From contig CM082585.2 in NCBI GenBank assembly GCA_040954595.2, positions 6,597,808 through 6,661,807 on the forward strand: a DNA stretch of 64,000 nucleotides, in the 5' to 3' direction. The position numbers and the translations under genes are program-made. Numbering within the stretch: position 1 is the first letter of the stretch; the number at the start of each line of letters is the position of its first letter. The notes beneath the pieces are model-generated. The model saw only the letters and a program-made list of their open reading frames with translations. It did not search any database and was not told the DNA's origin. The stretch comes from Balanoglossus misakiensis. Its lineage: Eukaryota; Animalia; Hemichordata. This document shows, in pieces, positions 6,501 through 45,700 of the stretch.

Positions 6501-9500
6501 CAACGCGTCCATGTAAAATGTCTGTAATCTCTGATACATTGTATTTTGGTTACCTGATACATTTCCTGGCTGACTGGTTGTGATCAGTTCAGCCAGATCA
6601 TATCTCCCAATGCTACGAAGTAAGTCTGTCAGCAAACCTGTTTTGTCTTCCCCAATGACTTTTCTGTCAAGTAACTTCTCAAACAACTCTGTAGCAAGTT
6701 GAATTCCTTCAATTTCTCTCTTTGGTATTCTCGTTGATCTCATGTTTCTGCACAGGAATTTCATGGATTTAAGTTCATCTGTAATGGTAATTACACAAAA
6801 CAAAATTGTTAAGAATTAATTAATCTGTGAGTTTTTTGTCCCAGAAGCTGTAGAAATCTTAATAACAACCAACTGCTATATAATACACACCTTTCGTTTT
6901 CTTTTATGGGGTTACATTTTTATGTGTAGCCCTATAATTTTACACCATTTTATAATTCCTTATACATGTAGTAAATTTTCAATTACCCATTACCTGACCA
7001 AACATGCAAGTGAACATGGCCTTCATATAAGGACTTAATTCGCACCCTTATTTACATGTGCCTATAGCTGCTTGCATGCATGCAGGGTATTAAACACCAC
7101 TCTTACCAGTTTGCCTAGTATATTGAGACTTTAATTGGTGTATGGTAGGTACAAATGCATGTAATACGACCATCATAATTAGTTTACAGTCTGTTATAAC
7201 TAATACAATCCACTTACCCTGTCCTATTTCATCTGCTATTCTGAGAAGTAACCCAATAAAACGATCTTTACTTCTTTGAGTGTAACTTTCAGTGGCTTGT
7301 ATCTCCTCTGTCCCTTTAAAATTGAAATTTGGAGAAACATGTGAATGTTTGAAAAGATTAACCTTTTTAATTCGATGCACATCATAGTCAGAGCTGTAGT
7401 GTTTAAAATGTAAAAAAATATTATCACTTTAAAACCCCTGACCAAAATCTTTTGAACTATGCTATTAGTCATTATACATCGCAAGCATTTGTGCCCTTGG
7501 AATTTTTAGGTTCAAAATATTTTCCTAGAGGAACATTTATGCTATCTTGTAATTCCAACCTCAACACTTAGCTCTCCCTTTATATCCAGGTTCAACATTT
7601 TATTGGCTACTTTTAAGCTTTAACCATACCAGCCACACCCCTGAATTATAAGTTGTCATTTTTTAAATATACCTGTGCGTGCCTCCTGTATATTTGGTAT
7701 CTGTATTTCATGAGCCCATTCAGAGAGTTGATGCTTAAACCATTTTGTATATTCATGGTTATATTTCTCATGACCTAACACTGCATCATAGTGTCCTGTA
7801 CTGAGCCAACTGATGTAGATATCACATGTAGGACTATCACCATGTCTTGGACTTTGTAACAGAAATGTTGGTTCCATCCCACTGTTCGTACCACCAACCA
7901 ATACATGTATATTGACACACACACGGCGGCTTAAGGCAGCAATTTCTGTTAAACCAGCGCACATACCATCCATGGCAGCTCTCGTCAGGAAATCTTTTGG
8001 ATCTCCTTCAATTACATGCTGGAACTGAGGTAAGTTTTGTCTTATATAGTTCGCAGCCTCTTGTCTGAGAATACCGTGTAAAGACTGACCGCCGTACATG
8101 GATTCTGCAATGGCACGATAGAGGCAGTTTCCATCTGGAATAATGTCGTATCTGTACAAACCCTGGCTTTGTAAGAATGCATCCTGTACTTCCTGTTCTA
8201 GGACTGTTTTGTTACTTTTAAGCTTTTGGTGTAGGGTTTTGATGGATTCTATAGGTGTCCGCAGCGTATGGAAAATCTCTGTAAAGTATACATGATAGTT
8301 CATTATGTCATGTAGTAATTGAAAAAAAAACTACTTGTGGCCGTATGTTTATATGTACGTAACCTATAAAGTAGTAAGACATGGTGGCTTGCCTTCAATA
8401 TTAAACTTTCAGGAGTTTCTACAGGACAAAATATTGTTTTTATTCAAAATTTACAGTCTGACCAAATACATAAGAGGTTCAAGGGTCAGTGCCAGACTCC
8501 TCCAACATCGTCATCACATCATCATCATCATCATCATCATTCATTATCATCATCATCATTAAACAGTCACACAGGACAAAATATTGTTTTTATTCAAAAT
8601 TTACAGTCTGACCAAATACATAAGAGGTTCAAGGGTCAGTGCCAGACTCCTCCAACATCGTCGTCACATCATCATCATCATCATCATCATTCATTATCAT
8701 CATCATCATTAAACAGTCACACATAAAATAACTTGGTTCCACTATAAATGCTGCCCTTAAACTAAGCTAAACTTTCATTTCTCAATATCAGTTAAGTTTA
8801 ATATTTACCTGGTGTATGTCCTCTTGTCACAGTTGTTGGTATTTTGTCTGGAGTAGCAATCTGCTCATACATTATTTCTGTAGGCTGAATTTGCCCTGAT
8901 TGTGACACCGACGTAGAGGGTGGCCTCACTGATGCTTCAGTTCGTCCAGATGAATAAGTGCCGGAAGACTGGACCGTTTTTTGTGGTAGTTGCACTAGTT
9001 GCAGCTGTGAGAAAAGTTGTTGGCATGGCAATGGTTGTTGTTGGAAGGTCTGTGTTGGCATTGCTGATCCTGAATAGCCTTGATGTTCACGTGTGTGAGC
9101 CATAATTGTTTGTGGCTCTGTATGCTGGTGTTGCTGGGGCATGTGAGCCTGTTGACTGATATTCTGCATAACCCTCACTTCAGATTTCCCTGGCTTATGT
9201 AACTGTTGTGGTATTGAAGATGGGGCATGCAGATGCTGTGTCTGTGATGCTGACTGAGGTAACCAATGTTGCATTGCCTGGCTGTCTGAAAACTGGTGTT
9301 GTAGTGGCCGAAATGAAGACTGTTGACCATCAGTTACTGACATATCTGGCTGCCACAGGTAATTGTGCTGCAATGATTCGGTTGTCAGATCTTGGGGGTT
9401 GCTACTTTCTTCCTAAAAATTAATACATGTATGTACAAATTGTGAAACAAACCGAATACTCTGCTCATTTTCTCATGGTGTAGATACAGAAATACACACT

Positions 9501-15135: not shown

Positions 15136-15716
15136 AACCCGTGTTGTCTGGGCTTGATGGCAAAATGATTCAGTTTGATGGGGATTACACGTTGCAGTCC
15201 TTTAAAACTATACCTAAGCTGACTGATTTATCAGTGTGCTTTTGGTTTCAAATCACCGAAAACAGTGGGGGCTGGTTCACCTTTGAGACACAGGACAAAT
15301 ACGTACTGGCATTTTGGCGCGACACTGAGCTGATGGTGCAGTCGGGCAATTGGAATGGCGAATCGCTCTCTGTCGACGACGGCCAATGGCATCACGTGTG
15401 TGTCACGTGGAAGTCCGACGGCGGGCTGTGGCAGGTCTTCAAAGATGGCGCCCTAGCTACCAGCGGTGCTGGTCTCGGCGACAAATTCGAATTAGCCGCA
15501 GGAGGAAAGTTTATCCTTGGAGCATCGAGACAGTACAAGGTCAAAGGCAACATGGCGCTGTTTAATGCATGGGACCGGGTGCTCAGCAGTGATGAAGTCA
15601 GTGATGTGAAGTCTTCCTGTGATGGTGACTACGAGGGGAATATGTTGTCATGGAAACAGGGTTTAGCACCACCGGAGAGTAAATACACGGCCGATTTTAG
15701 CCACTGTACCGGCTAG
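15136..15716 (+). CDS. Pentraxin-domain exon, copy 2
   Basis: Same acceptor and WHHVCVTWKS signature as copy 1; ORF intact. Confidence 0.85.
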
Positions 15717-19600: not shown

Positions 19601-22600
19601 CACGACTGAATCATTCAATCAATGGCAATACCGCCGTATAAAACCTCTAAAATCTCAGATATATTGTATTTTGGTTACCTGATACACTTATTGACTGACT
19701 TGGAGTAATCAGTTCAACCAGATCATATCTCCCAATTCTATGAAGTAAGTCTGTCAGCAAACCTGTTTTGTCTTCCCCAATGACATTTCTGTGAAGTAAC
19801 TTCTCAAACAACTTTGTAGCAAGTTGAATTCCTTCAATTTCTCTCTTTGGTATTCCCGTTGATTCCATGTTTCTGCACAGGAATTTCATGGATTCAAGTT
19901 CATCTGTAATGGTAATTACACAACACAAAATTGTTAAGAATTAATCTGTGAGTTTTTTGTCCCAGAAACTGTAGAAATCTTAATAACCAACCAACTGGTA
20001 CATAATACACACCTTTCGTTTTCTTTTATAGGGTGACATTTTTATGTGTAGCCCTATAATTTTACACCATTTTATAATTCCTTATAGTAAATTTTCAATC
20101 ACCCATTACCTGACCAAACATGCAAGTGAACATGGCCTTCATATAAGGACTTCATTCACACCCTTATTTACATGAGCCTATAGCTGCTTGCATGCATGCA
20201 GGGTATTAAACACCACTCTTAGCAGTTTGCCTAGTATATTGAGACTTTAATTGGTGTATGGTAGGTACATATGCATGTAACACCACCATCATAACAATAG
20301 TTTACAGTCTGTTACAATTAATACAATCCACTTACCCTGTCCTATTTCATCTGCTATTCTGAGAAGTAATCCAATAAAATGATCTTTACTTCTTTTAGTG
20401 TAACTTTCAGTGGCTTGTATCTCCTCTGTCCCTGTAAAATTTAAATTTGGAGAAACATTTAAATGTTTGAAAAGATTAACCTTTTTAAGTCAATGCACGT
20501 CATAGTCAGAGCTGTATAAGTGTTTAAAGTGTAAACAAATATTGGCTACTTTTAAGCTTTAACCATACCAGCCACACCCCTGAATTATAAGTTGTCATTT
20601 TTTAAATACCTGTGCGTGCCTCCTGTATATTTGGTATCTGTATTTCATGAGCCCATTCGGAGAGTTGATGCTTAAACCATTTTGTATATTCATGGTTATA
20701 TTTCTCATGACCTAACACTGCATCATAGTGTCCTGTACTGAGCCAACTGATGTAGATATCACGTGTAGGACTATCACCATGTCCTGGACTGTGTAAATGA
20801 AACCTTGGTTCTCCTCCACTGTTCTCACCACCAACCAATTCATGTATATTAATGCGCAGACTGTGGCTTAAAGCAACAATTTCTGTTGACCCAGCCCACA
20901 CACCATCCATGGCAGCTCTTTGCAGGAAATTCTGTGGATCTCCTTTAATTGCATGCTGGAACTGAGGTAAGTTTTGGTTGAGGTATCTCACAGCCTCTTG
21001 TCTGAGAATGCCATGTTTAGACTGATCGCCGTACAAGGATTCTGCAATGGCACGATACAGGCAGTTTCCGTCTGGAATAATGTCGTATCTGTACAAACCA
21101 TGTCTTTGTAAGAATGCATCTTGTACTTCCTGTTCCAGTACAGTTTTGTTACCTTTAAGTTTCTCACACAGGGTTTTGATGAATTCTCTAGATGCCGGCA
21201 ATACATCCAGAATCTCTGTAAAATATACATAAGAGACAGCCACCTGTAATCTTAGTTATTGACAAAGCATAATTTGCGCATCAGTTAAGTCGGGAACATG
21301 AGCAGTATATAAGTCCTTCCAAAGTCATTATTTGAAAATATTTTCATAAAATATTTTTTACAGTATATCTCAGGAAATCTTGGTGGCCATATGAAACTTT
21401 CACGTGTTTCTTAATAGGACAAACTGGAGACTTTCATAAAAGAAAACTGAAAACTCACATGTTCGAAAGAGCATACAGTGCGGTTTAACCATGAGCGTCA
21501 TTGGGCAAAATTTCTTTTTGGATTTTGGCGCTATATAAACTTTGTTGTTGTTGTTGTTGTTGACAAACTGAATTTTTCAAACCAATGTCAAGGGTCAGTG
21601 CCACACTCTATCATCACCATGCATTATCATGAGACATTAAGGCCAAAAAAATAGTTTGTTTCTCATCCTAGGAATCTTGCAAAAATGATGCGGTGACACG
21701 GTTTTTTTTCGTCATGCATTATCTTGAGAAATAAAAGAACTTGCTTCTATGATAAATGTTGCCCATAGACGAGTAGGAGCTTAAAAATACACATCAGAAC
21801 TATGTGCGTACAAAACTACACAACCTAATCCTACACAAACTGTAGTTCTGGCTACAAAACATTGGACCAAGTCACCTGTTGTGGAGTTGTATAAGTACAC
21901 TAACATAAACCTTCATCTCTGATATCAGTAACTTAAATATTTACCTGGTGTATTCCCCTTTGTCACAGTTGTTGGTATTTTGTCTGGAGTAGCAATGTGC
22001 TCATACTTTCTTTTTTTAGGTGGACGTTGTGATTGTAGCTGTGACGTAGATTGCCTCACTGACGCTTCAGTTTGTTCAAATGAATAGGTGGCGGAAGACC
22101 GGTCCATTTGTTGGGGTTGCTGCACTGGTGGCAGTTGTGGAAAAGGTTGTTGGAATGGCAATGGTTGTTGTTGGAAGGTCTGTATTGGCATTGGTGATCC
22201 TGGATAGCCTTGATGTTCACGTGTGTGAGCTATAATTGTTTGTGGCACTGTATGTGGGTGTTGCTGGGGCATGTGAGCCTGTTGACTGGTATGCTGTATT
22301 ACCCTCACATGATATTTCCCTGGCTGATGTAACTGTTGTGTCGCTGAAGGTGCGACTTGTTGCTGCCTTGACTGTGTTATTAGAGGATGTATCCCACAAT
22401 CTTTTGGCAGCCTGCCTGAAAAGTGGCCTTGTTGTTCAGGAGAGGATTGATGTAGCCCATGCATTGTGTGGGTGCCTGAAGATTGGTGTTGCTGTTGCAC
22501 AAATGAGGGTTGTTGACCATCAGTTACTCTAGATAGCCCTGACTGATGTAACTGTTGTGGTATTGAAAATGGGACCTGCAGATGCTGTGCCTGTGACGCT

Positions 22601-23778
22601 GTCTGAGGTATCCCATGTTGCATTGCCTGGCTGTCTGAAAACTGTGGGCCCCCAGTTACTGACATATCTGGCTGCCACAGGTAATTGTGCTGCAATGATT
22701 CAGTTGTCAGATCTTGGGGGTTGCTACTTTCTTCCTAAAAATTAATACATGTATTTACAAATTGTGAAACAAACCGAATACTCTGCTCGTTTTCTCATGG
22801 TGTAGATACAGAAATACACACTAACATGATGATCGAATATCTGCAGTCTCTGTTCTGCCTGTATCTGGAAACTTTTCTAAATATGCACTTAGGCTGCATT
22901 CACAAACATCTCTGGAGGGGGGGGGGCAGGAGAATTGAGGGGGGGGATTTGAAAAAATTGAGGGTATGTAAGGGGGGGATTTGAAATAATTTAGGGACTG
23001 AAAGGGGGGGGACTTGAAAACTTTAACGACTAAATATTTATTTTGAGTCCACAAAAATGCAGTTTCGCGCCCTTTATTTTACAAAATTTTCTAATGTGGG
23101 AGGGGGACACCCCCTCCCACACCCACCCCTCCATTCATCAATACCTTTCAATCATTGACTGGTTTATCTAGTGTCCCAGGTCAGGGGACTTGCCCCACCC
23201 CATGATAACTTTGAGCGGCGACGGTTACATTTGTCCTCCCCAACATACCGGTAGTTGAGTTAATTTGCTTTTGCCGGGTTCATTAAAATGCAGCTTTGAG
23301 CTCTGTATTTTAGAAAATTTTCTTACGTGGGAGGGGGACACCCCCTCCCAAACCCACCCCCTTCAATTCTCGGTTTACAATGTCTCCCAACACAGAATAC
23401 AAATATGTGTACTTAAAAAATAAAAACAATGTTCAGTTTTAATACCCACTGATGAGGGGAAACATCAGTTTCAAATTCTTTTCATGGGAGCGCTGTTTTT
23501 CTTTTTACAAGATAGATAGGTGATGTGTTTTGCTCTGTGAAAGAAAATGGGGGGGGGGGGATTTCAAAATTTTGGCAGTTCGGAAAGGGGGGATTTGAAA
23601 ATATTGGCAGTTCGGAAGGGGGGCATGTGAAAATTAGCGGTAAAAAAAATTGAATTCTCCCGCCCCCCCCTCCAGAGGTGTTTGTGAATGCAGCCTTAAT
23701 ACATCGTACCTTACATCTAATTAAATACATCTAAAATTGCCTAAAACAAAATGCTAATACCTGTGAATACTGTTCCAT
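16668..23778 (-). CDS. NLR copy 2: Q-rich linker-OTU(OTUD1-like)-DED-NACHT-LRR-like, ~1482 aa
   Basis: In-frame exons 23778-23761, 22734-21945, 21215-20610 (OTU), 20431-20336 + 19903-19679 (DED) and 19381-16668. All NACHT motifs are intact. Confidence 0.85.
20610..21215 (-). CDS. OTU deubiquitinase exon (OTUD1-like) of NLR copy 2
   Basis: IIPDGNCLYRA, DGVWAG and WLSTGHYDAV motifs; 606-nt phase 1-1 exon. Confidence 0.88.
22892..23695. mobile_element. PIF/Harbinger-like MITE, same family as 10553-11358
   Basis: TTA|GGCTGCATTCACAAACA ... TGTTTGTGAATGCAGCC|TTA; internal sequence nearly identical to the copy-1 element. Confidence 0.85.
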
Positions 23779-29400: not shown

Positions 29401-29490
29401 TAAAGTACAGTCTAGTTTAATGTTTTAGACGATACTAGACGATAAATATCCGATATCGTATAAATGTGCAATGTCGCGCTGTCCTCCATG
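26445..29490. mobile_element. Non-autonomous TIR element (~3.05 kb) filled with satellite repeats; superfamily unassigned
   Basis: AAAG 4-bp TSD (26441-26444 and 29491-29494); empty site CAAGAAAGGTG in the other units. ~55-bp TIRs CATG...TTGCACATTTATACGATATCGGATATTTATCGTCTAGTATCG. Confidence 0.85.
26625..29440. repeat. Composite satellite: 3 x ~115-bp unit X, ~5.5 x ~126-bp unit Y (26990-27680), ~15 x 115-bp unit X
   Basis: Periods read directly: TTGAGGTCCG at 27981, 28096, 28211...; TATCGTCTAA at 26991, 27117, 27243... Some units lack a 9-bp subrepeat. Confidence 0.92.
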
Positions 29491-29980
29491 AAAGGTGTCC
29501 TTCTTAGAGCAGTGTCTGCAAAGACACTAGATACACAGCATACTTTCCCATCACAATCTACGAATTTCAAAGACCATCGCATGAATTAATTAAGTTTAAT
29601 CTGTTTCTAATATAAGGCTTTTGCAAACTCCATTTTCTATACACCTCAATTAAAGGACACTGGCGCACACAGATGCATAGATATTTCCACTGACAGTGGC
29701 CGTTGCGATTTGTGAAGGTACGGTGAATTAAATGACCCATGATTTTGGAAATGGTATTACAGTCGAACATGTCTATAGTGGCCAGTCGAGGGACATTCCT
29801 AAACTCGCCTTTATAGACAGGTGGCCTTTATATACAGGTCAATGAATGCACATGTATATTGCACAGGGACAGTAACAAAGTGGCCACTATATACCTCTTT
29901 GATTGTATTTCAGGAATAATCTTCAGTAATTGATTGTTCACTCCCAATAGGAAATGTTTGTTTGCATTTATATTTTACAG

Positions 29981-30561
29981 AACCCGTGTTGTCTGGGCTT
30001 GATGGCAAAATGATTCAGTTTGATGGAGATTACATGTTGCAGTCCTTTAAAACTTTACCTAAGCTGACTGATTTATCAGTGTGCTTTTGGTTTCAAATCA
30101 CTGAAAAGAATGGGGGCTGGTTCACCTTTGAAACACAGGACGAATACGTACTGGCATTTTGGCGCGACACTGAGCTGATGGTGCAGTCCGGCAATTGGAA
30201 TGGCGAATCGTTCTCCGTCGACGACGGCCAATGGCATCACGTGTGTGTCACGTGGAAGTCCGACGGCGGGCTGTGGCAGGTCTTCAAAGATGGCGCCCTA
30301 GCTACCAACGGTGCTGGTCTCGGCGACAAATTCGAATTAGCCGCAGGAGGAAAGTTTATCCTGGGAGCATCGAGACAGTACAAGGTCAAAGGCAACATGG
30401 CGCTGTTTAATGCATGGGACCGGGTGCTTAGCAGTGATGAAGTCAGTGATGTGAAGTCTTCCTGTGATGGTGACTACGAGGGGAATCTGGTGTCATGGAA
30501 ACAGGGTTTAGCACCACCGGAGAGCAAATACACGGCCGATTTTAGCCACTGTACCGGCTAG
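29981..30561 (+). CDS. Pentraxin-domain exon, copy 3
   Basis: Same acceptor and signature as copies 1 and 2; ORF intact. Confidence 0.85.
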
Positions 30562-31424: not shown

Positions 31425-34400
31425 TTAACTTTCATTATGCTTCAAAAAGTTAATGGCTATTCTTAATGTACAGACTGGCATAAACATTTTCCTTCCATAA
31501 TTATAGTGAAATATATTGGCCAGAATTTTACACTCTTCAATGAACACATAGTTTGATTTCACCAGGGTTGACATCTCAGACCTAATCCTGTCATTTATTC
31601 GAGAACCAATCTTTGATATAACTACTATCGTAAAGGAATGAAGACTGATAGTCTTAGCCTTCTCAAGGAGAGTGCTGACATATGACTGGATTGCATCACA
31701 CATTGATAGCGCAGTAATAATGAGCTTTAGTGTGAAATGTTTCATGCTTCTAGACCATTGCTGGTTTGGTATCAAACAGGTCCAATCAGAAGCTTTCCAT
31801 TTATGCAAGGCTAAAGTTAAGTATTCTACATGTCTGACTTGCCTTGTGAGAATCAATGCATTTGCCAGGTTGTGAGTAAACACATCAGTTTCAAATTGTG
31901 TCACACTGCTACACATATTCAATGCCTTCACAAGATTCTCAGTGTTATCAGCTGTGACTATGAGATCATACCCCTGGATGCAAATAGAATTTAACACTGC
32001 AGGACTGGAGGATTTCAAAGCAGATAGCAACCATGTTGGAAAGCCTTCAGTAAGATCATGCAATATGAATTTTCTTGTTTGTTTACAGTTCTGGATAAAT
32101 CGACTTAGTGAATCAATATATGCATCATTCATATCAAAGTCTAATATTACTAGAGACACACACTCTGGACTCTTTTCTATAAGTTTGTCAAGTGGTAATG
32201 GAACTTTAGTGCAGTAATACTTTACACCCCACTGAAAATTCTGCAAATGTTTGTTGGAACTAACACTTTGGAATAAATGAGTGACAGCCTCGGCACATGT
32301 TTCTGTGTTCACCAGTTCATCTTCATCTAATGATAAAAATCCATAGAAGGTATTCAAATGCCATCCTCTGTTCAATGCATTTGCTATTTGCTGAATTGAT
32401 TCTAAGGTTTCACAATGCAATGCCACTGATGTTAAACTAATGCAATTGTCAGTTATTTCCTTAATTACCTGTGTGAAGAAATGTGATCTGTCCCCATTCT
32501 GTAAATATAAATGTTTGATGCCTTGAACACTGTCATTGTTCTGAGCCATGCTATTCAATAGACTAATTACCTGCCCAACCATTTTCTGGCTAAGTCTACA
32601 TACACCATACTGGCTACTCTCTATGGCATTCCTTGCATCATCATTGAACATATAATGATGCCAACCACTAGTAAAATCATAATCATATTCACCATCATCT
32701 AGTATCAAATGATTTGGCATAAATGGTGCTAGGTATTCAATTTTGATATTGGCTTCAAATAAACACTTGCAAATGAATGCAAATTCATCTGTGATGTCAA
32801 AGTCATCCTGACTACTATACTTACTTTGCATTGTCTTCTCAATCAGAACTTTCATGAAAGGGTCTGCTTTCTGTTTTAAGATGCCAGCAACAAACAGGCA
32901 AACCTGTTTTTCTCTTATAATATTTTCAATGGTAGACTCTGATCCATCACTACCAACAATGTTGCTGATATGCAATGCAGTGAAATATTCAAGCCAGGTT
33001 TTATGGTAGAAAAAGCAACCAGTCTGCAACTTGATTCTAGAAATTCCAGTATCTCTCACTAGTAAGCCTAGTGACAGAATTGTTTTGCTGACAGACTTTT
33101 CATCTATCATCATAGACCCTTGGGAACACACATCATATGCAACACTAGCTAATGCAGCCACTTCATCATTTAAATCATTTGGTATGCTATCAGTCAGTTC
33201 CCTGTTATTCTTGCAACAGAATCTCTTCAAAATACAGTCCAAAATTTCAGAATAAATGTCCGTCAAATTATTCTTGGGGATGGTTTTCTTCTCTTCCCAA
33301 AGCAGACAAACAAATGCTAGATGTAAGGGATTACATAGCAGATCTCGCTTGATGTAGTCATCATCATCATCATCATCATCATGATACCATGGCTTACCGT
33401 CAGACTCTTTAACAACATCAAGGTTTAACTCTGAAACAAGACTCTCCGCTTGGTTTACTCTCTGACTAAAATACTTGTGTATATACTCAATTGCATCTGT
33501 TGTTGAAAATCCATCAATTCTGAAGTGTGCATGACAATCTTTGAGAGCTTTATCACATTCATGAGGTCGTGTTGTTGTGACAACTGTACACCTTGGCAAC
33601 AATTTCTCTGAGATAATAGGAAGTATATCTGATTTCTCTCTGGATGATGATGTAATTTCATCTAACCCATCAAATAAACACAGTACTAAATTTTGGCTGT
33701 GTTCAATGTAACCATAAAGATCCTCTTTCTTGATTGTGGCATCCCTATGAAGCAACTGTTGGAAGATGATGTCATCTAATCTCTTTTTGTCAGAAACGTG
33801 TCTCATTTCTAAGAGAAACAGAAGTTTGAATTGAGGTAGTTTGCCCTGTGCCCAATCATATGCTAGCTTCCTACAAAATGTTGACTTTCCCATTGCCGGA
33901 GCCCCTTCAATCCTGATTCGACTGCAAATTAACTGCGGATCTGTCTCTTTAAAAATGTCATGCTCACTTGTGAGGACACTCCCTTCTTCAAAAAGTAGTC
34001 TTCTGTGCATTTTGATAACTCTCAGTTTCGTGTAGACTTCAGTGAGACTTAGAGATACACTTTCATTCCATGGAATTGGTCTGAAATCGTTGAAGTGTCT
34101 TGTATACTTTTGTTGTAAATATTCTATCAACCAATGTATCCTTTCTAAAACCATAACTGTGAATAAAAAAGAAGAATTAGTGGCTGCCTCTGTGGAACTC
34201 TACTTATATAACAATTGTACAGGAAAACACGTCTTGCATACAAATACACCTGAAACACTCGAACAGTATAAATGCTTGAAAACTAGTGGGCTAATGGGAA
34301 GGCACAGAATGCGACACACTCATGGGTTGGCGGAAACTTGGCAAAATCTTTAATATGCAGATGAAAAAGAGTTTGACAAAACCAGCTCCAACCACTTATA

Positions 34401-37400
34401 CACCATGTGAATAAAGGTAAATAAAATAAATATAACAAACATACAAGTAAAAGCCATGGGTAGTGGTGGGTGGGGTTTGAAGCGAGCGACTGCTCGAAAA
34501 AGTGACTCTACAAGATGGCGGAAGCCCTACAAAAGTAGCAATTCTCTCCGGAAGGCGGGAAGACGCACTACACAGAGGGCGCCCCAAATTACACCCAAGG
34601 GGTTGGGCCTAAATTAGTGGCTGCCTCTGTGGAACTCTACTTATGTAATAATTGTACAGGAAAACACGTCTTGTATACAAATACACCTGAAACACTCGAA
34701 CAGTATAAATGCTTGAAAACTAGTGGGCTAATGGGAAGGCACAGAATGCGACACACTCATGGGTTGGCGGAAACTTGGCAAAATCTTTAATATGCAGATG
34801 AAAAAGAGTTTGACAAAACCAGCTCCAAGCCGCCAAACCAGGGGAGGGGAAGCATTCAGGGAGTTCCCATTAGCGAGTAAAATACAAAACTGCCGAGGAA
34901 CTTACTAGAAAGATACCTAACACATTGGAGAAAAGATGTGAAAACTTCAAGACTGATTGAAGTGGGAACGCAAATGCTCTTGCATAAGGGTGGTGACTGA
35001 GCAGCACTTTTGTGGGCTGACATGTAAGTAGCGCAAGTAAGCGGGTGATTTCCAGTCCCCGTGCAATTTGATAAGTTCCCCAGGAACCCCTGCTTCGAAA
35101 GCGAAAGAAGCGCCGCCCCTGCGGAAACTATGGCCTGAGTAGAGAGAGGGGTTGAACCCGGCTTGCGCTAAGACGGAACGTAGAAAAGACACAAATGCGC
35201 TGTGAGTGAGGGGGACTAGGGTACCCTGTGAAGGATAGACAAATGCTGGTGCTCCGGCTGGAGCTGGGATCAAGTCGCGCATGCGTTCGAAAGACGTGAC
35301 TGGGCATAACACTGAGCCTGGTAACCGCGCAACTGGGATTGAGCACACGCGATCGTGGAACTGATTGGTTTTTGACCAACGAATGAGAACGTGTAGCCCA
35401 AAAGCACTAAACTGTATATCCCCCCGACACAGGTGCTTCTGGGGGTCAAAGGTCGTGCGAGAAGGAACAGTAAGGTTGGACTTCCTGAGAAATGTGAAAA
35501 AACCCAATAAGCAAGCGGTCCAAAAAACTTGATGAAAAGGGTTGGAAAAATCTAACAACCTATGTAAAGCTAACATGATATGCGGAGTGATGGGCAGCTT
35601 CTGAGTACATGACTGGGGATGAACTCGCTGAAGACCTCTCAAAGTCAGTTTGACTTGAAAACTCTCTAAGGCCGAACATTCAATGCCTAAATACGAATGC
35701 AATTTAGAAACACCATGCAAGTAGTTTTTCAGTGACTGCACTGAACTGACTGAACGAGATAAAAAGGTAAGAAACATGGAAAGAACATGCGGTGATGCCG
35801 GTGTTGGCTTGAGGCCGAAGAAGTGGCAAAACAATAAGAAAGCCTTCCACTGGCTTTTCAAATTTTGGACTGTCCCTGTAGCAAATGCAGAAGCTTGTAA
35901 GGCTGTAGTTTGCTGGTGAAGGGCAAGCCATGACGACCCTGAAATAAGGAATGAAACCTAACTGAGAATACATCTCGACGCTGGGAACATGGACAGTGAA
36001 AGCTTACAGGTCATAGTGAAAGTTAGTGAAATATGTGACTGGCACTGCCACCTCTATCACATACATACTACTGGTTAACGCATGAAATTCAAAACTGTGA
36101 TGCTGAGAAATGTGCCATCTGCTTAAATGGTCAGCTAAGCGATTATCCTGACCCTGAATATGCACCGCTTTAAGTTCAAAACTATTGAGTGTGGACATAG
36201 CCATAACTCTCGTAAATATTGAAGTATATGAAGGTCTCATGAGCGACCTGAATGCTCGACGGAAAGTTTAAATACAGCGATGTCAGAGGCGAAGCTGAAA
36301 TCGGAGGAAATGTTACAATGTTTGAAGTGGACGAGGACGGTGGGTCCTCGTTCGCTGAGTAAGACACAATGTCAGATTTGAAGTATATGAAGGTCTCATG
36401 AGCGACCTGAATGCTCGACGGAAAGTTTAAATACAGCGATGTCAGAGGCGAAGCTGAAATCGGAGGAATTGTTACAATGTTTGAAGTGGACGAGGACGGT
36501 GGGTCCTCGTTTGCTGAGTGAGACACAATGTCAGATGATGCGTGTATGGCCTGAGATACATGAAGGGCGTGGTGTATGTGACCAGGGAGCCCGAATGTTA
36601 GCGTAGGACGGTGACCGAGCGCTAGAAAATTCTGCCAATGCAGAAGAGTACGGAATGTTCTATGAGGAAGAGACGGAACACAATGTAGTCTCTGTGAACC
36701 TGGAAGTCAACCCAACAACTGAAGTTCAGTCCGAATTAGATGTATTACTATCGGAGCTGTCATTCTTCTTGCTGGTGGCGAGGTGGCAGTCTTTGCCGCT
36801 GTGAGGTGTGGCTGTGTTGTTAATTTTGAAACAGTGATAGCAGATGTGGCGTCTAAAACACTTGTCGCCCCATTCGCATGTCTGGAGGTTGTATTTGTAA
36901 CAAATATCGCTCTTCTTGACGGCCTGTGTCTTGCCGCTATCAGTGCCTTGTTTGACGGATTTCAGGGTGTCGGGTGAGAGAAGTTCTTTTTCATAACGGT
37001 CGAAGCAGTCTTGCCAACGTAGTTCTGCGCTTTGTATCTTTTCTAAGATGGTACCGTGAAAATTCAGTACGTCTGACCAATCGTGCTTATGAGCGAGTCT
37101 CATTAAGTTCTGTAGATGCAGTGATCTGGGAGCGCGTTCCTCAGACGAGATGGGCAGGTAGACGGAGTTGAGTATTTCTAATTCACCTCTGACCAGTTGT
37201 GCGATGGTTAAGTTGTCGAATTTGGGGACTTTTCCTCCTTTTTCGCGAGGTAGGCGCAAATGTGGCCATTTCACTCTGGATTCGTCTGCGAAGCTAGGGG
37301 CTTGAGAGTCACGAGGGGACTTTCCTGGCTTACCTTGTGACATGTAGCCGATCGGCCAATCAGCACGAGTAGACTGTCCGATGGACGTTGGCAATGCGGA

Positions 37401-40400
37401 GGCGCCAAATGCCGAATTCACGATGTGAGAGAGTTGTGCGTCGACTGCTTGGTTGGCCGCTGGGTTTTGACGAAGGGTGTCCAGTGTTGGTGGACAGCCG
37501 TTGCCCGACGATAAAGGGATCGATGGAGGCGGTTGCATGAGACTTGTGTTGGCAACCCGCACTCGGAGGGCGGCAAGTTCGTGTTCTAGTTCTGAGATGC
37601 TGGAGCGGGTCTGTAATGCACGCTGCTCTCGTTTCTGCAGTAGGAGTTGCTTTTCCTGTAACAGTTCTGCCTGTCTGGCTTGTAGATCTTCGAGCTGGAG
37701 TGAGTCAGTCTGTTCGACGACGACGGATGTGGTGGGAATGGCAGAGCTTCCATCTGCGCCTTGCGGTTGGGGCACGCCTGTGCAGTTTGGGCCTGGCTGT
37801 AATCCAAGAGCGCGATGCCCTTTTACTGCTTGTTTGCAGCCAGAGCAGTTGGGAGTCCGCCTTTCGGACTGTGGGAGAGTTTCGCTGTCTGAGTGGTCGG
37901 ACATATTGTGACGACAAAGCGGCGAAAAAGACGGATTTTTGGAAGAAGTTTGAAGCGAGCGACTGCTCGAAAAAGTGACTCTACAAGATGGCGGAAGCCC
38001 TACAAAAGTAGCAATCCTCTCCGGAAGGCGGGAAGACGCACTACACAGAGGGCGCCCCAAATTACACCCAAGGGGTTGGGCCTACATTAAAGTGATGAAT
38101 GACACTACAGTACTCACACTTCATGTAAAATCGATTCATGAGGGATTACAAAAATAATGTGTTCAAGTCAGCATTTTGAGTATCAATACAGTAAATGCAG
38201 TGAACATACTAGAATGAACAGTACTCTGGCACGCTGCGATTGCAACTGAGGTCGGAGGTTGCACAACACTGGAACACGACTGAATCATTCAATCAATGGC
38301 AATACCGCCATATAAAACCTCTAAAATCTCAGATATACTGTATTGTATTTTGGTTACCTGATACACTTATTGACTGACTTGGAGTAATCAGTTCAACCAG
38401 ATCATATCTCCCAATTTTACAAAGTAAGTCTGTCAGCAAACCTGCTTTGTCTTCACCAATGAGATTTTTGTCAAGTAATTTTTGAAGCAAATCTGTAGCA
38501 TGTTGGATTCCTTCAATTTCTCCTTTTGGTATCCCTACTGGGCTCATGTCTGTGCATAGGAATTTCATGGATTGAAGTTCATCTGTAATGATAATTAAAC
38601 ACAAAAAAATATTAACAATAAACCTGTTTAAGTGTTGGACACAGAAGCTGTAGAAATCATAGTAAGCCACTGGCAGTTGTAATAAAGCTACCAAGTTTTC
38701 TTTTAACATTCCCGGCTCGATTTTGTGTGAAACCCCATCATTTTGCACAATTGATCTTATGTATCCTTTTATGGTAATTTTATGTCATTTTAAAATCAGT
38801 CATACTCTAATTGGACTTCGTACTGTCATTTACATAGTATTGCCCAATGTCTGCAGTAACTCAATGTTTGATAGAAGTTATAGAGGTTACAGCAATATAG
38901 ATTTATCAATGATACCAACAGAATATCAACAATTCCTATGGACTGTTCATTATTCTATATGGCTATCAAACACTCGACAGTGATTTACTTCACCAGCCAC
39001 AAAGATGTGTAATTCCCCCCCCCCCCATCTGCATGATTGCCGGTTGCAATTGGGCATATAAAACATTTTCAGCAGTTTACCTATTAGTAAATACATATGT
39101 GATACTATACTACCATCACAATAATTATGAAAGTCCAGTGTCCTCTAATACTATTCCACTTACCCTGTCTTAATTCATTTGCTATTCTGAGAAGTAATCC
39201 ACGAAAATCATATTGCCTTCCTTGAGTGTAACGGGTTATCCATGCATCGCTGTCACCCTGTATCAGCTGTTCCCCTTTAAGATTGAAATGTGTAGAAATA
39301 TACACATTTACAAAGATTCACCTTTTTATTCCATCATATGTTGTAGTAAGAGCATTTGAAGTCTTTTTTTCTTTTCACTTTTAATTCAATATAAACGTGA
39401 ATCTTGTATTGAGTGACAATTATTATACATAGAAATTAAAAATAATCTCTTGAAATTTATAGGTTCAAAATATAAGTTTTGAAGCTATAACTTCTTTTTG
39501 TGTACCACTTCTGTGAAAATGTTTTGTTTACAAATTTACAAGACAAACAACTTTTGATGGAACCATTGACTTGTACTAAAAGTTAATGTACCGGTATGTG
39601 TATTGTGTGACATATGTAAGAGTACCTCAAACCTCAATCTGGGACCAGAAACTGGGACTCCCAGATGTCACAAAATGCAGTCTGGGACCAGTCCCAGACC
39701 TAATCTGGGACCGGTCCCAGATTCACTATTTTTACAGGTCTTTTACTTCAAAAAGGCAAGACCAGTTTGGCAAATTTCATAACAAAACTACATAAACATT
39801 TCATGCTACATAAACAGTAGTACTGGCTACAAAACATTGGACGAACTACACAAGCAATATGGCAACTGCATGGTTATCATTGCACCAGCTCAACTTTTGT
39901 TCATCATTTCTTAATATTTACCTGGTGTAAATGAGGGTTGTTGACCATCAGTTACTCTAGACAGCCCTGGTTGGTGTACCTGTTGTGGTATTGACGATGG
40001 GGCCTGCAGATGCTGTGCCTGTGACGCTGACTGAGGTATCCGATGTTGATGAATTGCCCAGCTGCCTGAAGATTGGTGTTGCTGTTGCAGAAATGAGGGT
40101 TGTTGACCATCAGTTACTCTACCGGTAGATAGCCCTGACTGATGTAACTGTTGTGGTATTGAAGATGGGGCCTGCAGATGCCGTGCCTCTGCCGCTGACT
40201 GAGGTACCCCACGTTGATGAATTGCCCAGCTGCCTGAAGATTGGTGTTGCTGTTGAACAAATGAGGGTAATTGTTGACCATCAGTTACTCTAGATAGCCC
40301 TGGCTGGTGTAACTGTTGTGGTATTGAAGATGGGGCCTGTAGATGCTGTAAATCTGACGCTGACAGAGGTATCCAATGTTGACGAATTGCCGAGCTGCCT

Positions 40401-42732
40401 GAAGATTGGTGTTGCTGTGGCAGAAATGAGCGTTGTTGACCATCAGTTACTCTAGATAGCCCTGGCTGGTGTAACTCTTGCGGTATTGAAGATGGGGCCT
40501 GCAGATGCTGTGCCTGTGATGCTGACTGAGGTATCCCATGTTGAGGAATTGCCCAGCTGCCTGAAGATTGGTGTTGCTGTTGCAGAAATGAGCGTTGTTG
40601 ACCATCAGTTACTCTAGATAGCCCTGGCTGGTGTAACTCTTGCGGTATTGAAGATGGGGCCTGCAGATGCTGTGCCTGTGATGCTGACTGAGGTATCCCA
40701 TGTTGAGGAATTGCCCAGCTGCCTGAAGATTGGTGTTGCTGTTGCAGAAATGAGCGTTGTTGACCATCAGTTACTCTAGATAGCCCTGGCTGGTGTAACT
40801 CTTGCGGTATTGAAGATGGGGCCTGTAGATGCTGTGCCTGTGATGCTGACTGAGGTATCCCATGTTGAGGAATTGCCCAGCTGCCTGAAGATTGGTGTTG
40901 CTGTTGCAGAAATGAGCGTTGTTGACCATCAGTTACTCTAGATAGCCCTGGCTGGTGTAACTCTTGCGGTATTGAAGATGGGGCCTGCAGATGCTGTGCC
41001 TGTGATGCTGACTGAGGTATCCCATGTTGAGGAATTGCCCAGCTGCCTGAAGATTGGTGTTGCTGTTGCAGAAATGAGCGTTGTTGACCATCAGTTACTC
41101 TAGATAGCCCTGGCTGGTGTAACTCTTGCGGTATTGAAGATGGGGCCTGTAGATGCTGTGCCTGTGATGCTGACTGAGGTATCCCATGTTGAGGAATTGC
41201 CCAGCTGCCTGAAGATTGGTGTTGCTGTTGCAGAAATGAGCGTTGTTGACCATCAGTTACTCTAGATAGCCCTGGCTGGTGTAACTCTTGCGGTATTGAA
41301 GATGGGGCCTGCAGATGCTGTGCCTGTGATGCTGACTGAGGTATCCCATGTTGAGGAATTGCCCAGCTGCCTGAAGATTGGTGTTGCTGTTGCAGAAATG
41401 AGCGTTGTTGACCATCAGTTACTCTAGATAGCCCTGGCTGGTGTAACTCTTGCGGTATTGAAGATGGGGCCTGCAGATGCTGTGCCTGTGATGCTGACTG
41501 AGGTATCCCATGTTGATGAATTGCCCAGCTGCCTGAAGATTGGTGTTGCTGTTGCAGAAATGAGGGTTGTTGACCATCAGTTACTCTACCGGTAGATAGC
41601 CCTGACTGATGTAACTGTTGTGGTATTGAAGATGGGGCCTGCAGATGCCGTGCCTCTGCCGCTGACTGAGGTATCCCATGTTGATGAATTGCCCAGCTGC
41701 CTGAAGATTGGTGTTGCTGTTGAACAAATGAGGGTAATTGTTGACCATCAGTTACTCTAGATAGCCCTGGCTGGTGTAACTGTTGTGGTATTGAAGATGG
41801 GGCCTGTAGATGCTGTAAATCTGACGCTGACAGAGGTATCCAATGTTGACGAATTGCCGAGCTGCCTGAAGATTGGTGTTGCTGTGGCAGAAATGAGCGT
41901 TGTTGACCATCAGTTACTCTAGATAGCCCTGGCTGGTGTAACTCTTGCGGTATTGAAGATGGGGCCTGCAGATGCTGTGCCTGTGATGCTGACTGAGGTA
42001 TCCGATGTTGACGAATTGCCCAGCTGCCTGAAGATTGGTGTTGCTGTGGCAGAAATGAGCGTTGTTGACCATCAGTTACTCTAGATAGCCCTGGCTGGTG
42101 TAACTGTTGTGGTATTGAAGATGGGGCCTGCAGATGCTGTGCCTGTGACGCTGACTGAGGTATCCCATGTTGCATTGCCTGGCTGTCTGACAACTGGTGT
42201 TGAAGTGGCCGAAATGTAGACTGTTGACCATCAGTTACTGACATATCTGGCTGTCTTGAGTAATTGTGCTGCAATGATTCGGTTGTCTGCTCTTGGGGGT
42301 GGCTACTTTCGTTCTAAAAATGAATACATGTATGTACAAATTGTGAAACAAACCGAATACTCTGCTCATTTACTCATGTTGTAGATACAGAAATACACAC
42401 TAACATGGTGATCGAATATCTGCAGCAGGAGGATTTATCTGGAAACTTTTCTAAACCAGCCACAAAACAAACAAAAACGGCTTAGGTCATCTGGGGTCCA
42501 CTTTTGAGAGGTTTTGCAGTCATCTTGAAAATACATTTATAGCAGAAAGGATTATACCAGCCTATTACACAAATTTAAGTTTACTGCAAATGTTGAGATT
42601 TTTATCAATTATTGATGTATGATTTGTCTCATTGACTTCTATGAGAAAATGCATTTGGTTCCACCACATGAAAAAGGTAATTAATGTTAACTGTCTAAAA
42701 CAAAATGCTAATACCTGTGAATACTGTTCCAT
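31425..42732 (-). CDS. NLR copy 3: expanded Q-rich repeat-DED-NACHT-LRR-like, no OTU exon, ~1821 aa
   Basis: In-frame exons 42732-42715, 42313-39922, 39274-39164 + 38582-38358 (DED) and 34144-31425. The last intron carries the Ngaro-like element. Confidence 0.8.
34947..35939 (-). CDS. Tyrosine recombinase of the Ngaro-like element
   Basis: Catalytic set FLRKSN (R), WSKT (K), GHSFRRGGA (HxxR), GDWKS (W), AYLRY (Y). The frame is open upstream of the listed TTG, has no leading ATG, and follows a TTCCTTATTTCAG acceptor-like site. Confidence 0.88.
   Translation of the reverse strand, partial: GSSWLALHQQTTALQASAFATGTVQNLKSQWKAFLLFCHFFGLKPTPASPHVLSMFLTFLSRSVSSVQSLKNYLHGVSKLHSYLGIECSALESFQVKLTLRGLQRVHPQSCTQKLPITPHIMLALHRLLDFSNPFHQVFWTACLLGFFTFLRKSNLTVPSRTTFDPQKHLCRGDIQFSAFGLHVLIRWSKTNQFHDRVCSIPVARLPGSVLCPVTSFERMRDLIPAPAGAPAFVYPSQGTLVPLTHSAFVSFLRSVLAQAGFNPSLYSGHSFRRGGASFAFEAGVPGELIKLHGDWKSPAYLRYLHVSPQKCCSVTTLMQEHLRSHFNQS
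36004..36217 (-). pseudogene. C-terminal remnant of DIRS-type RNase H
   Basis: FELKAVHIQGQDNRLADHLSR matches HIxGxxNxxADxLSR. No RT motifs seen upstream. Confidence 0.75.
36219..36537. repeat. 159-bp tandem duplication at the pol deletion junction
   Basis: TTGAAGTATATGAAGGTCTC occurs at 36219 and 36378. Confidence 0.85.
36726..37904 (-). CDS. Gag-like ORF1 of the Ngaro-like element (~392 aa)
   Basis: ATG at 37904 (MSDHSDSE), coiled-coil-like segment, and C-terminal Cys/His knuckle CYKYNLQTCEWGDKCFRRHICYHC...HSGKDC. Confidence 0.8.
   Translation of the reverse strand: MSDHSDSETLPQSERRTPNCSGCKQAVKGHRALGLQPGPNCTGVPQPQGADGSSAIPTTSVVVEQTDSLQLEDLQARQAELLQEKQLLLQKREQRALQTRSSISELEHELAALRVRVANTSLMQPPPSIPLSSGNGCPPTLDTLRQNPAANQAVDAQLSHIVNSAFGASALPTSIGQSTRADWPIGYMSQGKPGKSPRDSQAPSFADESRVKWPHLRLPREKGGKVPKFDNLTIAQLVRGELEILNSVYLPISSEERAPRSLHLQNLMRLAHKHDWSDVLNFHGTILEKIQSAELRWQDCFDRYEKELLSPDTLKSVKQGTDSGKTQAVKKSDICYKYNLQTCEWGDKCFRRHICYHCFKINNTATPHSGKDCHLATSKKNDSSDSNTSNSD
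39930..42240 (-). repeat. Coding minisatellite, 162-bp/54-aa unit, ~14 copies
   Basis: 15 VTDGQQ motifs; six near-identical central units; variant units 3-5 recur as units 12-14. Confidence 0.93.
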
Positions 42733-45700
42733 GTTGGTATCCCAGGTATGAACTCTTCTTGGAGATTTTTTTCCTTTTCTTTTTCTTCTTCATCGCCTCC
42801 TTTCTCTTTTTGGATAACTTTAAATATTCAGAGTTACTCTGAGTCAGTAAATGACGATCTGTAGTATTTGTTTACCTGTCAAGAGAAGATGTTAAAAAAG
42901 TTTACAGACAGAGAATGAAGTATTCAGAGATTTCAAATGACTTATCAATCCTTTAAAGTTTGACAGCTTTGTCTACTGACACATGAAAATTGGGTTGGGT
43001 GGAGGTCAAAGTTCTTGAAAACAAGTAATCTACTGTTCACGGTGTCTGGGCTAACATTATTGCAGCCGTGGGATTAGATATGGGTTGACAGTCCCCAGTT
43101 ACTTGCACTTTCCGGACGGGTTGTTTTTGTGAATGTATTGGATGTTCTTGAATAGAAAAAGGTATAAGGCTTTCTTTTCATTTCACACGTTTCTTTTTCA
43201 GTTTTTTTTGGCTGAACATTCCTGAATATTTCAATGACGTACTCAAGACTTATGATGAACAAAGTTAATCACACTGCAGCGAATACCATGAGTACAAACG
43301 CAATAACAAGTGGAAGAAATTCAAGAAAAATCATACATCTTTGCTGTTCAAGTTTCTGCATAAATAACAGCTGGTGTGTATCCATACTTAAGTTCAAGAA
43401 AAAGATGAATATTAAACCAGACTATTATAAATCTGAAGTGATTTCCTGTTTTTAGGGAATATTGGAAATTTCAACATTGTGAGCATGTCAGAACTCCAAC
43501 TATGCGGGCAAGATCACATCTTACAAATTCATCTCAGCCACGCACATTGGTAATTAAATTTATAAGGTGTGAACTTGCCCGCATAGTTAAAGTTCTCAAG
43601 CTCACAATGTTGAAATTTTACCTGAAACTAAAAAAAGTGATGTCGTATTTTCAGGCAATATTGGAAATCACTTTTTGAGGAGACTGTGACATGTTGTTCA
43701 CTGTTTGCGACAATGGGTTTGATGCCGATTAATCTTTGGATCTGACTCTGAAACTAGCACTGGGTGGTCCGTGTTAAGAATCAGAATCAGTATCAGCTGG
43801 AAAGGTCACGCAAAGACGAGGGTTGAGTGAATCTGACGAAAACGTCTAGCTCATGGATGTATTTATACTTGTGATGTCATATGCAAAACCCCCTAAATAT
43901 CTGTTAATTTATATGCACCTCTGAGATAAAACTTTGTCAGAAGTATTTTCTGGACGTTTCTGCAGCCCCACTTTTTTTCTCACTACATGTAGGCCTCATG
44001 CATACACAGGTGCACAGTGAATATTTGCACGTCAGTCATAATACTCGGGCTTTCAGAAGTATGTGATAAACACAGATTCAGCCTTTCAGAACTACACGAT
44101 ATATCAATACATTCTTCTGTTGTACTGTACCGATACATGGGGTCTAATCGACTTTATAGGTTTGCAAGCAGGCGTCCTCGGGGGTGTGTGGTCTTATCAT
44201 ACTAGTTGGTTAATCATTCACTAGGACATTTAGTGTAGCAGGATATCCTGTTCATTAACCAACACGAGGTCGGTTGATCATTGGACATGTTGTGTACCAG
44301 GTATGTTCAATGATTAACCAACTCCTTCACCTACAGTAGAGAAGCCATCTTTTGCTAACTAGGAACTTTTAATTTTACACCATCTAGACTACAAAAGAAC
44401 TTTAATATGAGTTCATAGTGTACAGTGTTCTAATAAAATGATCTGGCTTTAAACTTACCTTTACAGTTGGTTGAAGAAGCTGTCACTGCTGTTTGTCTCG
44501 TTGTCTTATTTCAACGTCAGAACAAAGATGGCGAATTTTTAACGTAATGGTTTCAAAATGGCGTTGTCAAAAAAGAGACTTGTACTATATGAACACCATG
44601 AAAGGTTGGTTTAGGGCCGGGACCTGGACGTATCAGTGGTAGTGTATACCTATCTGACGACGATGCCTCACTGGTGTTGGAATTTTGGCGGTCAATGGCA
44701 GATTAAATGTGGAACCCCGTCACGACGTGTTGCACATAGGCTACCCCGGTACAAGGATTGATTTATAGAGTAGACTTTTATTGCCATTCAAACATCTCAC
44801 GAAAGTCCCAGATAACGCCATCACGGTTGATAATGATAAGCTTAGTTGTATTTGCCTTTACACATTTGTGAATTTATTTCTGAAAATACAGCATAAGCAA
44901 ATTCATTAAAGCCCCAACATCTGCCATTTTTTGCATTATAAAACAATACGTTGGCTAACAAAGCTTTAACGGTTTTGTACACCGCAAGCAAGATGGTTGG
45001 TGGGTTTCCTTTTCATACACAACAGTTTTACAACGATCTGTGTCTTTTATACATCCCAAATGAATATTCTACCTATCAGAATTGATATAATTTAACAGCA
45101 CGCTACAGCCTTCAAATGATGTAGTTCGCGAAAACTGCATATTTCTTTATAAAGCATTTAATTAAAGAAAACAATGTCTTTCTGAATAATTATTTTCTGT
45201 ATTTTAGTGCCTACTGCATACCATAATAATATTGTAGATGATTTGGAAATAAAACTCTTTGCAATGGGGTCGGAGGCCTATAGTTGCAATAAATAGACAC
45301 TTAGACACATAAAATGGTATTACCAATCAAAAGTATGATTTATTGAAACTTGACTCTCCTGAATACAATAAAACAGTACTTGGATACAATCTTGGAAAAC
45401 AACTTTTGTCTTAAATATCTATCTTCAAGAAAGGTGTCCTTCTTAGAGCAGTGTCTGCAAAGACACTAGATACACAGTATACTTTCCCATCACAATCTAC
45501 GAATTTCAAAGACCATCGCATGAATTAATTAAGTTTAGTCTGTATCCAATCTAAAGCTTTTGCAAACTCCATTTTTCTATACACCTCAATCAGTTCAAAC
45601 CAGACACGATTAATACTATGTCTTGTATGCATAAAGTTACAATGGTACTTTAGTGCAAGGTATATACAATACAAATAAACATTTAAAATTGTTTTACAAC

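Follow-up and report, generated by a model that had tools for sequence, protein, structure and literature searches.

The 64,000-nucleotide (nt) window analysed here, from the acorn worm Balanoglossus misakiensis (GenBank assembly GCA_040954595.2, contig CM082585.2, positions 6,597,808 to 6,661,807 of the forward strand), holds a tandem unit repeated three times, with long blocks 92-95% identical to each other. Each unit pairs a pentraxin/laminin-G exon on the plus strand with a receptor gene on the minus strand, in which Pfam recognizes DED and NACHT domains and, in copies 1 and 2, an OTU domain as well. The subject of this report is the receptor gene of copy 3, in which a glutamine-rich exon has grown into a long in-frame repeat array and the OTU exon is absent. 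Anchored on shared splice sites, the three minus-strand gene models use GT-AG introns, contain no internal stops and encode 1427, 1482 and 1821 amino acids (aa) in copies 1, 2 and 3. Their exons follow one order: a start exon, a Q-rich exon (phase 0 to 1), the OTU exon (phase 1-1; copies 1 and 2 only), two DED exons (each phase 1-1) and a long terminal exon.

In copy 3 the start exon lies at 42715..42874 on the minus strand, as do all exons given here. Its main ATG, at 42732, is in phase 0, and a second one upstream, at 42793, is in phase 1. The Q/S/P/H exon at 39922..42313 is 2392 nt long, has AG/GT borders, passes from phase 0 to phase 1 and comprises a 25-codon leader, 14 units of 53-57 aa and a partial unit. 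The intron behind it, at 39275..39921, is 647 nt long and OTU-less. A single DED is spread over two phase 1-1 exons, the first (39274-39164) encoding a linker and the first helix and being of an old, divergent type, the second (38582-38358) switching from divergent to copy-2-like sequence near 38450. The terminal exon (31425..34144) encodes NACHT, HD, WHD and LRR in 905 aa, with intact Walker A and B motifs. The corresponding Q-rich exons are at 21945..22734 in copy 2 (about two units plus a tail) and 8809..9412 in copy 1 (one unit plus a tail), followed by phase 1-1 OTU exons of the OTUD1 type, with catalytic Cys and His kept, at 20610..21215 and 7673..8278, respectively.

Tandem Repeats Finder places the array at 39929-42239, with a 162-nt period, 14.2 copies and 93% matches, and the minus-strand frame across it is open for 800 codons, confirming the some 14 in-frame units reported in a preliminary description of this DNA; the other five frames of the exon contain 15-107 stops each. 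One unit is 159 nt long, eleven are 162 nt and two are 171 nt, and an 11-codon partial unit follows. Since units 6-11 differ from each other by only 0-1 nt, the expansion appears to be recent. Units 3 and 12 show no differences, units 4 and 13 two, and units 5 and 14 eight, so that the proposed equation of units 3-5 with 12-14 is approximately right. A near-identical block of about three units, offset by half a unit and lying around 42003-41510, recurs at a lag of 1467 nt. Unequal crossing-over is the established mechanism for patterns of this kind, and the array likely follows the expectation for it. Copy 1 has a single unit (9337-9182) and copy 2 a partial unit and a degenerate second one (22644-22318), matching the earlier counts of one and about two. 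The copy 3 exon lacks a tail of about 120 codons that is present in copies 1 and 2, and it encodes no Lys and no Cys. All length changes among the Q exons are multiples of three (4/4 gaps between copies 1 and 2; unit variants of -3, +3 and +6; the tail loss), and because 162 is itself a multiple of three, unit gains would remain in frame without selection. Among 63 contig pieces set on one unit, the length variants listed comprise a loss of net 3 nt and a gain of 6 nt, and no frameshift is listed.

Copy 3 thus differs in three respects: its units have expanded, its Q exon has lost some 120 codons at the 3' end, and it has no OTU exon. The array does not stand in place of the OTU domain, as had been suggested, because the expansion lies in the preceding exon and the OTU exon is missing from the next intron. 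The estimate of about 650 bp of OTU-free intron ahead of the DED was accurate: in the 647 nt, neither OTU exon gives an alignment above shuffles, and no OTU domain is assigned to copy 3. This intron opens with 140 nt that resemble the pre-OTU intron of copy 2 (101/148) and closes with 200 nt that resemble the post-OTU intron of copy 1 (140/220); each of these alignments scores higher than 100 shuffles. Because the exons downstream of the Q exon all begin in phase 1, the OTU exon can be lost without breaking the reading frame.

The OTU-less segment is old. From the Q donor to the middle of the DED, copy 3 is about 65-70% identical to copies 1 and 2 in the introns, 80% in the DED exons and 60% in protein, whereas identity in the flanking introns is 95-98% on the 5' side and, relative to copy 2, 97% on the 3' side; the NACHT exons reach 87% in protein. 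Within DED exon 2, identity to copy 2 changes from 80% to 96% near 38450. The DED cassette has retained an intact frame and its splice sites, while its introns have diverged to about 65-70% identity, and short-read contigs contain a second allele of DED exon 1 with an in-frame 6-nt insertion. With an old DED segment between recent flanks and a recent NACHT exon, copy 3 is, by its alignments, a chimera: a recent 5' end and NACHT-LRR part around a long-maintained OTU-less DED cassette. A NACHT tree with 27 rows, from which three of the matches were left out, unites the window genes in one clade (100/99), sister to three models from Ptychodera flava (99/96); this trio and the window genes belong to a larger group of moderate support (88/87) that also takes in other OTU-bearing proteins. 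This placement indicates that the OTU domain is likely ancestral and that copy 3 has lost it. The trees do not settle copy 3 between copies 1/2 and the Ptychodera trio. A common origin of the OTU loss in copy 3 and in the OTU-less Ptychodera model P0124 was considered and rejected, as the two are not grouped.

Among the best 120 of 260 matches to the OTU domain, the closest named ones are three Ptychodera models, followed by vertebrate OTUD1, and the best solved structure is that of human OTUD1 (PDB 4bop, E 7e-37). In a tree of 39 rows chosen by hand from the matches, the window and Ptychodera OTUs form a clade (98/94) that is sister to amphioxus, tunicate and vertebrate OTUD1 with moderate support (89/78); the OTU of Glandiceps talaboti is a long unplaced branch. 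The catalytic motifs PDGNC and GHYD are present in both copies 1 and 2. All seven retrieved Ptychodera and Glandiceps OTUs (P0001, P0002, P0003, P0121, P0122, P0123, P0147) have Ser at the position of the catalytic Cys, although two of the seven models, which are without a DED or NACHT match, could be fragments of genes. In copies 1 and 2 the DED follows the OTU exon, which ends 24 residues past the OTU core, and Pfam scans of these OTU exons gave no match to a ubiquitin-interacting motif (UIM). Separately, the OTU of copy 1 has a Cys in place of the conserved Trp of a 'W-A-G' segment, and a likeness between the KKRK tail of copy 2 and P0003 was dismissed as not significant (115 of 2000 shuffles).

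The order OTU-DED-NACHT also occurs in gene models of Ptychodera flava and Glandiceps talaboti. At E <= 1e-30, 27 proteins match the copy 3 NACHT exon, including 19 from Ptychodera flava, three from Branchiostoma and one each from Glandiceps talaboti and Saccoglossus. The Ptychodera protein P0124, a Q-rich DED-NACHT model that has no OTU, shares its contig with the OTU-bearing P0121 and P0123; being an automatic gene model, it may have missed an exon. A Pfam scan of 42 among the 150 OTU matches listed found NACHT or DED in none. No report of an OTU-NLR fusion was found in the literature searched, subscription journals and bioRxiv supplements being outside its reach; the word OTU is absent from the available text and the examined supplements of PMC8662601 and PMC13012124, and a literature search on OTUD1 evolution returned no result.

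In copy 3, Pfam assigns the NACHT domain at E 2e-26 and the DED at E 3e-13, and the motifs GAPAMGKST (Walker A) and FDGLDE (Walker B) are present in all three copies. Pfam has no LRR match in the terminal exon; an AlphaFold2 model of it (12 sequences, mean predicted local distance difference test, pLDDT, 72.8) shows the NACHT and, starting at residue 544, a series of 11 strand-helix repeats. Over about 900 columns, this model aligns with NLRP3, NLRC4 and NOD2 (E about 1e-20, TM scores 0.3-0.5). The predicted protein thereby has the NACHT, the N-terminal death fold and the C-terminal LRR of a NACHT-type NLR. Among the paralogs, dN/dS is 0.24-0.57 in the nucleotide-binding domain (NBD) and 1.29-1.88 in the C-terminal part, highest in pairs with copy 3, and variable positions number 81/318 in the LRR and 22/181 in the NBD. 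As an observation apart, amino-acid sites of the LRR part (31425-32700) change faster than silent sites.

For the arm encoded by the array, leader plus two units gave 0/592 homologue candidates at E <= 0.01 in a weak search of proteins of 232-2000 aa, and Pfam matches on the array were all below cut-off, with no stretch passing. The arm consists of 23% Q, 17% S, 9% P and 8% H, with five Pro per unit. An AlphaFold2 model of three units, from a single sequence and therefore weak, has a mean pLDDT of 45.6, no residue at or above 70 and no secondary structure, which supports the prediction that the arm is disordered. This composition resembles that of the Q exons of copies 1 and 2, and the Q-rich N-termini of Ptychodera P0001, P0123 and P0124 have 17-22% Q, 9-12% S, 9-10% P and 5-7% H, while no alignment between the arm and these N-termini was significant (z up to 2.9, never over the shuffle maximum). 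Since composition is held in common without alignable sequence, we infer that selection would act on bulk properties rather than on motifs. The lack of lysine in the N-terminus, where the first Lys is residue 847, was set aside, being not significant per unit (P 0.17-0.33).

We propose that copy 3 is a predicted DED-NACHT-LRR immune receptor with a rebuilt N-terminus and without the OTUD1-type exon, in which a 162-nt coding minisatellite expanded, likely by unequal crossing-over, into a predicted disordered arm of about 800 residues. The arm would act through its composition and length, as a multivalent, length-tunable element that tunes receptor clustering, a reading we hold with about as much doubt as confidence. 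Sensing by the LRR, oligomerization by NACHT and recruitment by the DED are established NLR and DED biology; in copy 3 the LRR would likewise sense a ligand, the NACHT oligomerize, and the DED recruit a DED caspase or adaptor. Lacking the OTU domain, the receptor would presumably signal with no ubiquitin-editing or ubiquitin-binding domain attached, and constraint on the precise number of units would be loose.

Several observations weigh against this reading. The clustering role is drawn from composition only, and the arm is low in charge and aromatics (8% charged, 3.6% F/W/Y). The units vary in a near-neutral manner (pN/pS 0.81), and the finding of no stops among 29 changes would arise by chance with P = 0.17. 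In the C-terminal part, dN exceeds dS significantly in one of three pairs (P 0.02, 0.06, 0.18; the binomial P = 0.02 is for copy 2 vs 3), purifying selection on the NBD is significant in two of three, and strand-only variability of the LRR (18/73) is not clearly above that of helices (26/126), an excess appearing only after the three following residues are added (40/106, P = 0.005). The read depths given below do not equal copy number, and runs X1-X3 come from one sample, perhaps the source of the assembly. Each copy has the upstream ATG, through which the Q exon could be avoided entirely. Finally, a retroelement inserted in sense orientation with ATTAAA at 34791 and 34354, 30 nt before the NACHT acceptor, could truncate copy 3 transcripts or otherwise impair the gene.

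The upstream ATG is in phase 1 and has a lysine-rich start in each copy (42793, 23839 and 9971; minus strand). With the Q exon included, it opens only a 29-codon overlapping frame in all three copies; with the Q exon skipped, it gives full-length frames of 1246, 1239 and 1044 aa, with the lysine run first. The start exon of copy 3 also opens with a donor-like GTAAAC. The retroelement (34175..38089, minus strand, 3.9 kb) sits in the DED-NACHT intron and is Ngaro/PAT-like: it has the split direct repeats A1...B1-A2-B2 (37948-38089 = 34475-34616; 34612-34828 = 34175-34391 at 98.6%) that define this group in the accessible part of PMC9210276. It carries open reading frames (ORFs) for a 451-aa gag-like protein with no Pfam match and a 336-aa recombinase-like protein (Phage_integrase only at E 0.1); an ORF for reverse transcriptase was not found in it. 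Where it ends, a CTAAT resembling a branch point stands at the original distance. High depth of this element in runs X1 and X2 suggests many genome copies.

Read depth bears on the array as well. In run X1, words of the window that occur sixfold lie on contigs of depth 181 and 215, with unique flank at 30-42, which fits a multi-copy array; in run X2, the same 62-mer contig has depth 114 and a unique contig 138, a hint of a different array or unit mix. Depth is about 5 at 39780-39899 in both runs, and dips of this kind are not counted as a finding. A contig found in both X1 and X2, with a loose end at 41411, has a NACHT-exon-type acceptor joined in frame to a repeat unit; the acceptor is 28/30 identical to that of copy 2 (match 19375-19404), hinting at another locus or allele with a Q unit after the DED.

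The best-surviving alternative is that the minisatellite expanded neutrally in a dispensable linker and that copy 3 is perhaps decaying or truncated, yielding at most a product of Q arm and DED. The near-neutral pN/pS of the units, the recency of units 6-11 and the fact that unit gains stay in frame regardless all speak for it, as do the sense retroelement with its ATTAAA motifs so close to the acceptor, the donor-like GTAAAC and the seemingly different unit mix of run X2. Against it stand the 1821 open codons, the conserved promoter-like region, the CTAAT motif and the arm of like composition kept in Ptychodera; we consider this explanation possible but doubtful. Considerably less probable, though compatible with the arm reading, is that copy 3 serves as an OTU-less partner in a hetero-oligomer with copies 1 and 2, as sensor to helper or as a dominant regulator. 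Co-assembly is plausible because the NACHT exons are 87% identical, and the Ptychodera cluster likewise places OTU-less P0124 beside OTU-bearing P0121 and P0123. Yet all three copies keep identical Walker motifs and a diversifying LRR, so that no sensor/helper asymmetry is seen, and the missing exon of P0124 may be an annotation gap. The divergent DED of copy 3, at 60% identity, could equally point to a different partner.

The preliminary description further suggested that the arm could be a protease tripwire, by analogy with NLRP1 and CARD8; on this reading, viral 3C/3CL proteases would cut at Gln, release or destabilize the N-terminus and switch on the receptor. The LQ/A and HQ/S bonds it named are indeed present, LQ/A is unchanged in 14/14 units, a disordered N-terminus on an NLR would suit the role, and removal of the arm could unmask the DED. 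However, these motifs occur at the level of chance: of 20,000 shuffles of one unit, 29% contain LQ[ASG] one or more times, and each unit has four Q[ASG] sites where 4.56 would be expected. More complete 3CL- and 3C-type patterns have no occurrence in the copy 3 Q exon, the Q exon of copy 1 has no LQ[ASG], and neither Pfam nor fold search found a FIIND or a C-terminal CARD. Moreover, fourteen near-identical sites would not widen protease coverage, and diversification resides in the LRR, not in an arm with pN/pS of 0.81. We therefore do not retain the tripwire and regard it as very improbable.

Still less probable is a signalling amyloid or prion resembling RHIM or fungal NLR amyloid motifs. Prion domains are typically marked by at least 30 Q+N in 80 residues, and RHIMs by their own core motif. 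The 23% Gln and the tandem repetition of the arm are suggestive, but it reaches at most 21 Q+N per 80 residues with almost no Asn, has five Pro per unit, no [IV]Q[IVLC]G core and no ordered model; of the earlier proposal of a disordered, prion-like or condensate module, the disorder is supported, a condensate scaffold is possible and the prion part is not supported. An assembly artefact in the array or at the OTU-less junction is barely credible: units 6-11 are nearly identical and hard to assemble, and no listed contig was shown to span the array-intron junction, but distinct unit types lie in a higher-order pattern, array words have raised depth, and contigs match the DED intron and exon of copy 3.

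The remaining features of the window lie around the receptor genes. Copy 3 has a promoter-like region with a putative first, non-coding exon (44459..44780, minus strand; GTAAG donor below 44459, upstream limit approximate), its function judged from sequence; this stretch is 91.5-93% identical to three other copies (anchors 548, 13785 and 25456). The fourth of these promoter-like/first-exon copies, at about 548 (window about 295-900), means that a further paralog should lie outside the window, past its left end. The pentraxin/laminin-G exons (1945-2586, 15075-15716 and 29920-30561, plus strand), one per receptor gene, have dN/dS of 0.23-0.29 and stand head to head with the promoter-like region of the next receptor. 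An element of about 815 nt with terminal inverted repeats and an apparent TTA duplication, presumably Harbinger-like, occupies different insertion sites in copies 1 and 2 (10548-11362 and 22887-23699) and is absent from copy 3. Non-coding satellite arrays of 115-126 nt lie between copies 2 and 3 (26624-29440). A 153-aa minus-strand ORF (52224-52685, region 51562-52685) has no Pfam match and a 160-nt duplicate nearby.

By itself, the array is ordinary coding minisatellite evolution in a predicted disordered linker, and the fusion of an OTUD1-type domain to an NLR is the stronger lead. This fusion with DED-NACHT-LRR is common to at least two acorn-worm families, in intact, Cys-to-Ser and deleted versions. 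As described in the accessible part of the literature, mammalian OTUD1 restrains NF-kB and cell-death signalling in trans; the OTUD1-type domain here would ride on the receptor itself. The three paralogs form a natural series, OTU with a short arm versus no OTU with a long one, with which one may ask in what way the threshold of an innate receptor is set by ubiquitin editing and by disordered arms, and whether integrated decoys are in use among animals. A bolder idea, which we think unlikely and offer as speculation, is that acorn-worm NLRs captured OTUD1 as an integrated ubiquitin sensor that switches between an active (Cys), a dead, ubiquitin-binding decoy (Ser) and a deleted state, which would make them the animal equivalent of plant integrated-decoy NLRs, copy 3 having exchanged the protection of the enzyme for an 846-residue lysine-free disordered arm whose repeat number sets the activation threshold.

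The genes share features with several known systems. In the available part of PMC13012124, DED-NACHT fusions and tandem NLR duplication are already known in cephalochordates; the window genes resemble these cephalochordate and invertebrate NLRs in DED, NACHT, LRR-like C-terminus and tandem duplication but add a Q-rich arm and, in copies 1 and 2, an OTUD1-type domain. Like the window genes, NLRP1 and CARD8 have a disordered N-terminus on an innate sensor; in contrast, according to the part of PMC10249858 available, CARD8 sensing depends on FIIND self-cleavage and its tripwire is under positive selection, whereas the window genes show no FIIND or C-terminal CARD, carry their effector domain N-terminally and display no positive selection on the arm. 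With human OTUD1, copies 1 and 2 share the catalytic motifs and a low-complexity N-terminus ahead of the OTU, which in the human protein is disordered (PMC9952104, as far as accessible). The same source reports that the K63 specificity of OTUD1 requires its UIM; the window OTU, which is absent from copy 3, is instead fused to DED-NACHT-LRR, shows no UIM-like tail by inspection, and follows an arm of Q/S/P/H rather than A/P/G.

Closest are Ptychodera XP_070536456, XP_070537049, XP_070537198 and XP_070532842 and Glandiceps XP_077991469, which have the order OTU-DED-NACHT; the Ptychodera models also share Q-rich N-termini and include one without OTU, and in the NACHT tree the trio is sister to the window genes (99/96). 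They differ in having Ser for the catalytic Cys, which copies 1 and 2 keep, and the Ptychodera models have no long perfect array (P0001 1-420 contains no repeated 8-mer). Plant NLRs carry integrated decoy domains. A pathogen effector or a decoy function would be conjectural for the window genes, which resemble the plant integrated-decoy NLRs in that a host enzyme domain is fused to an NLR and is gained, inactivated or lost among paralogs.

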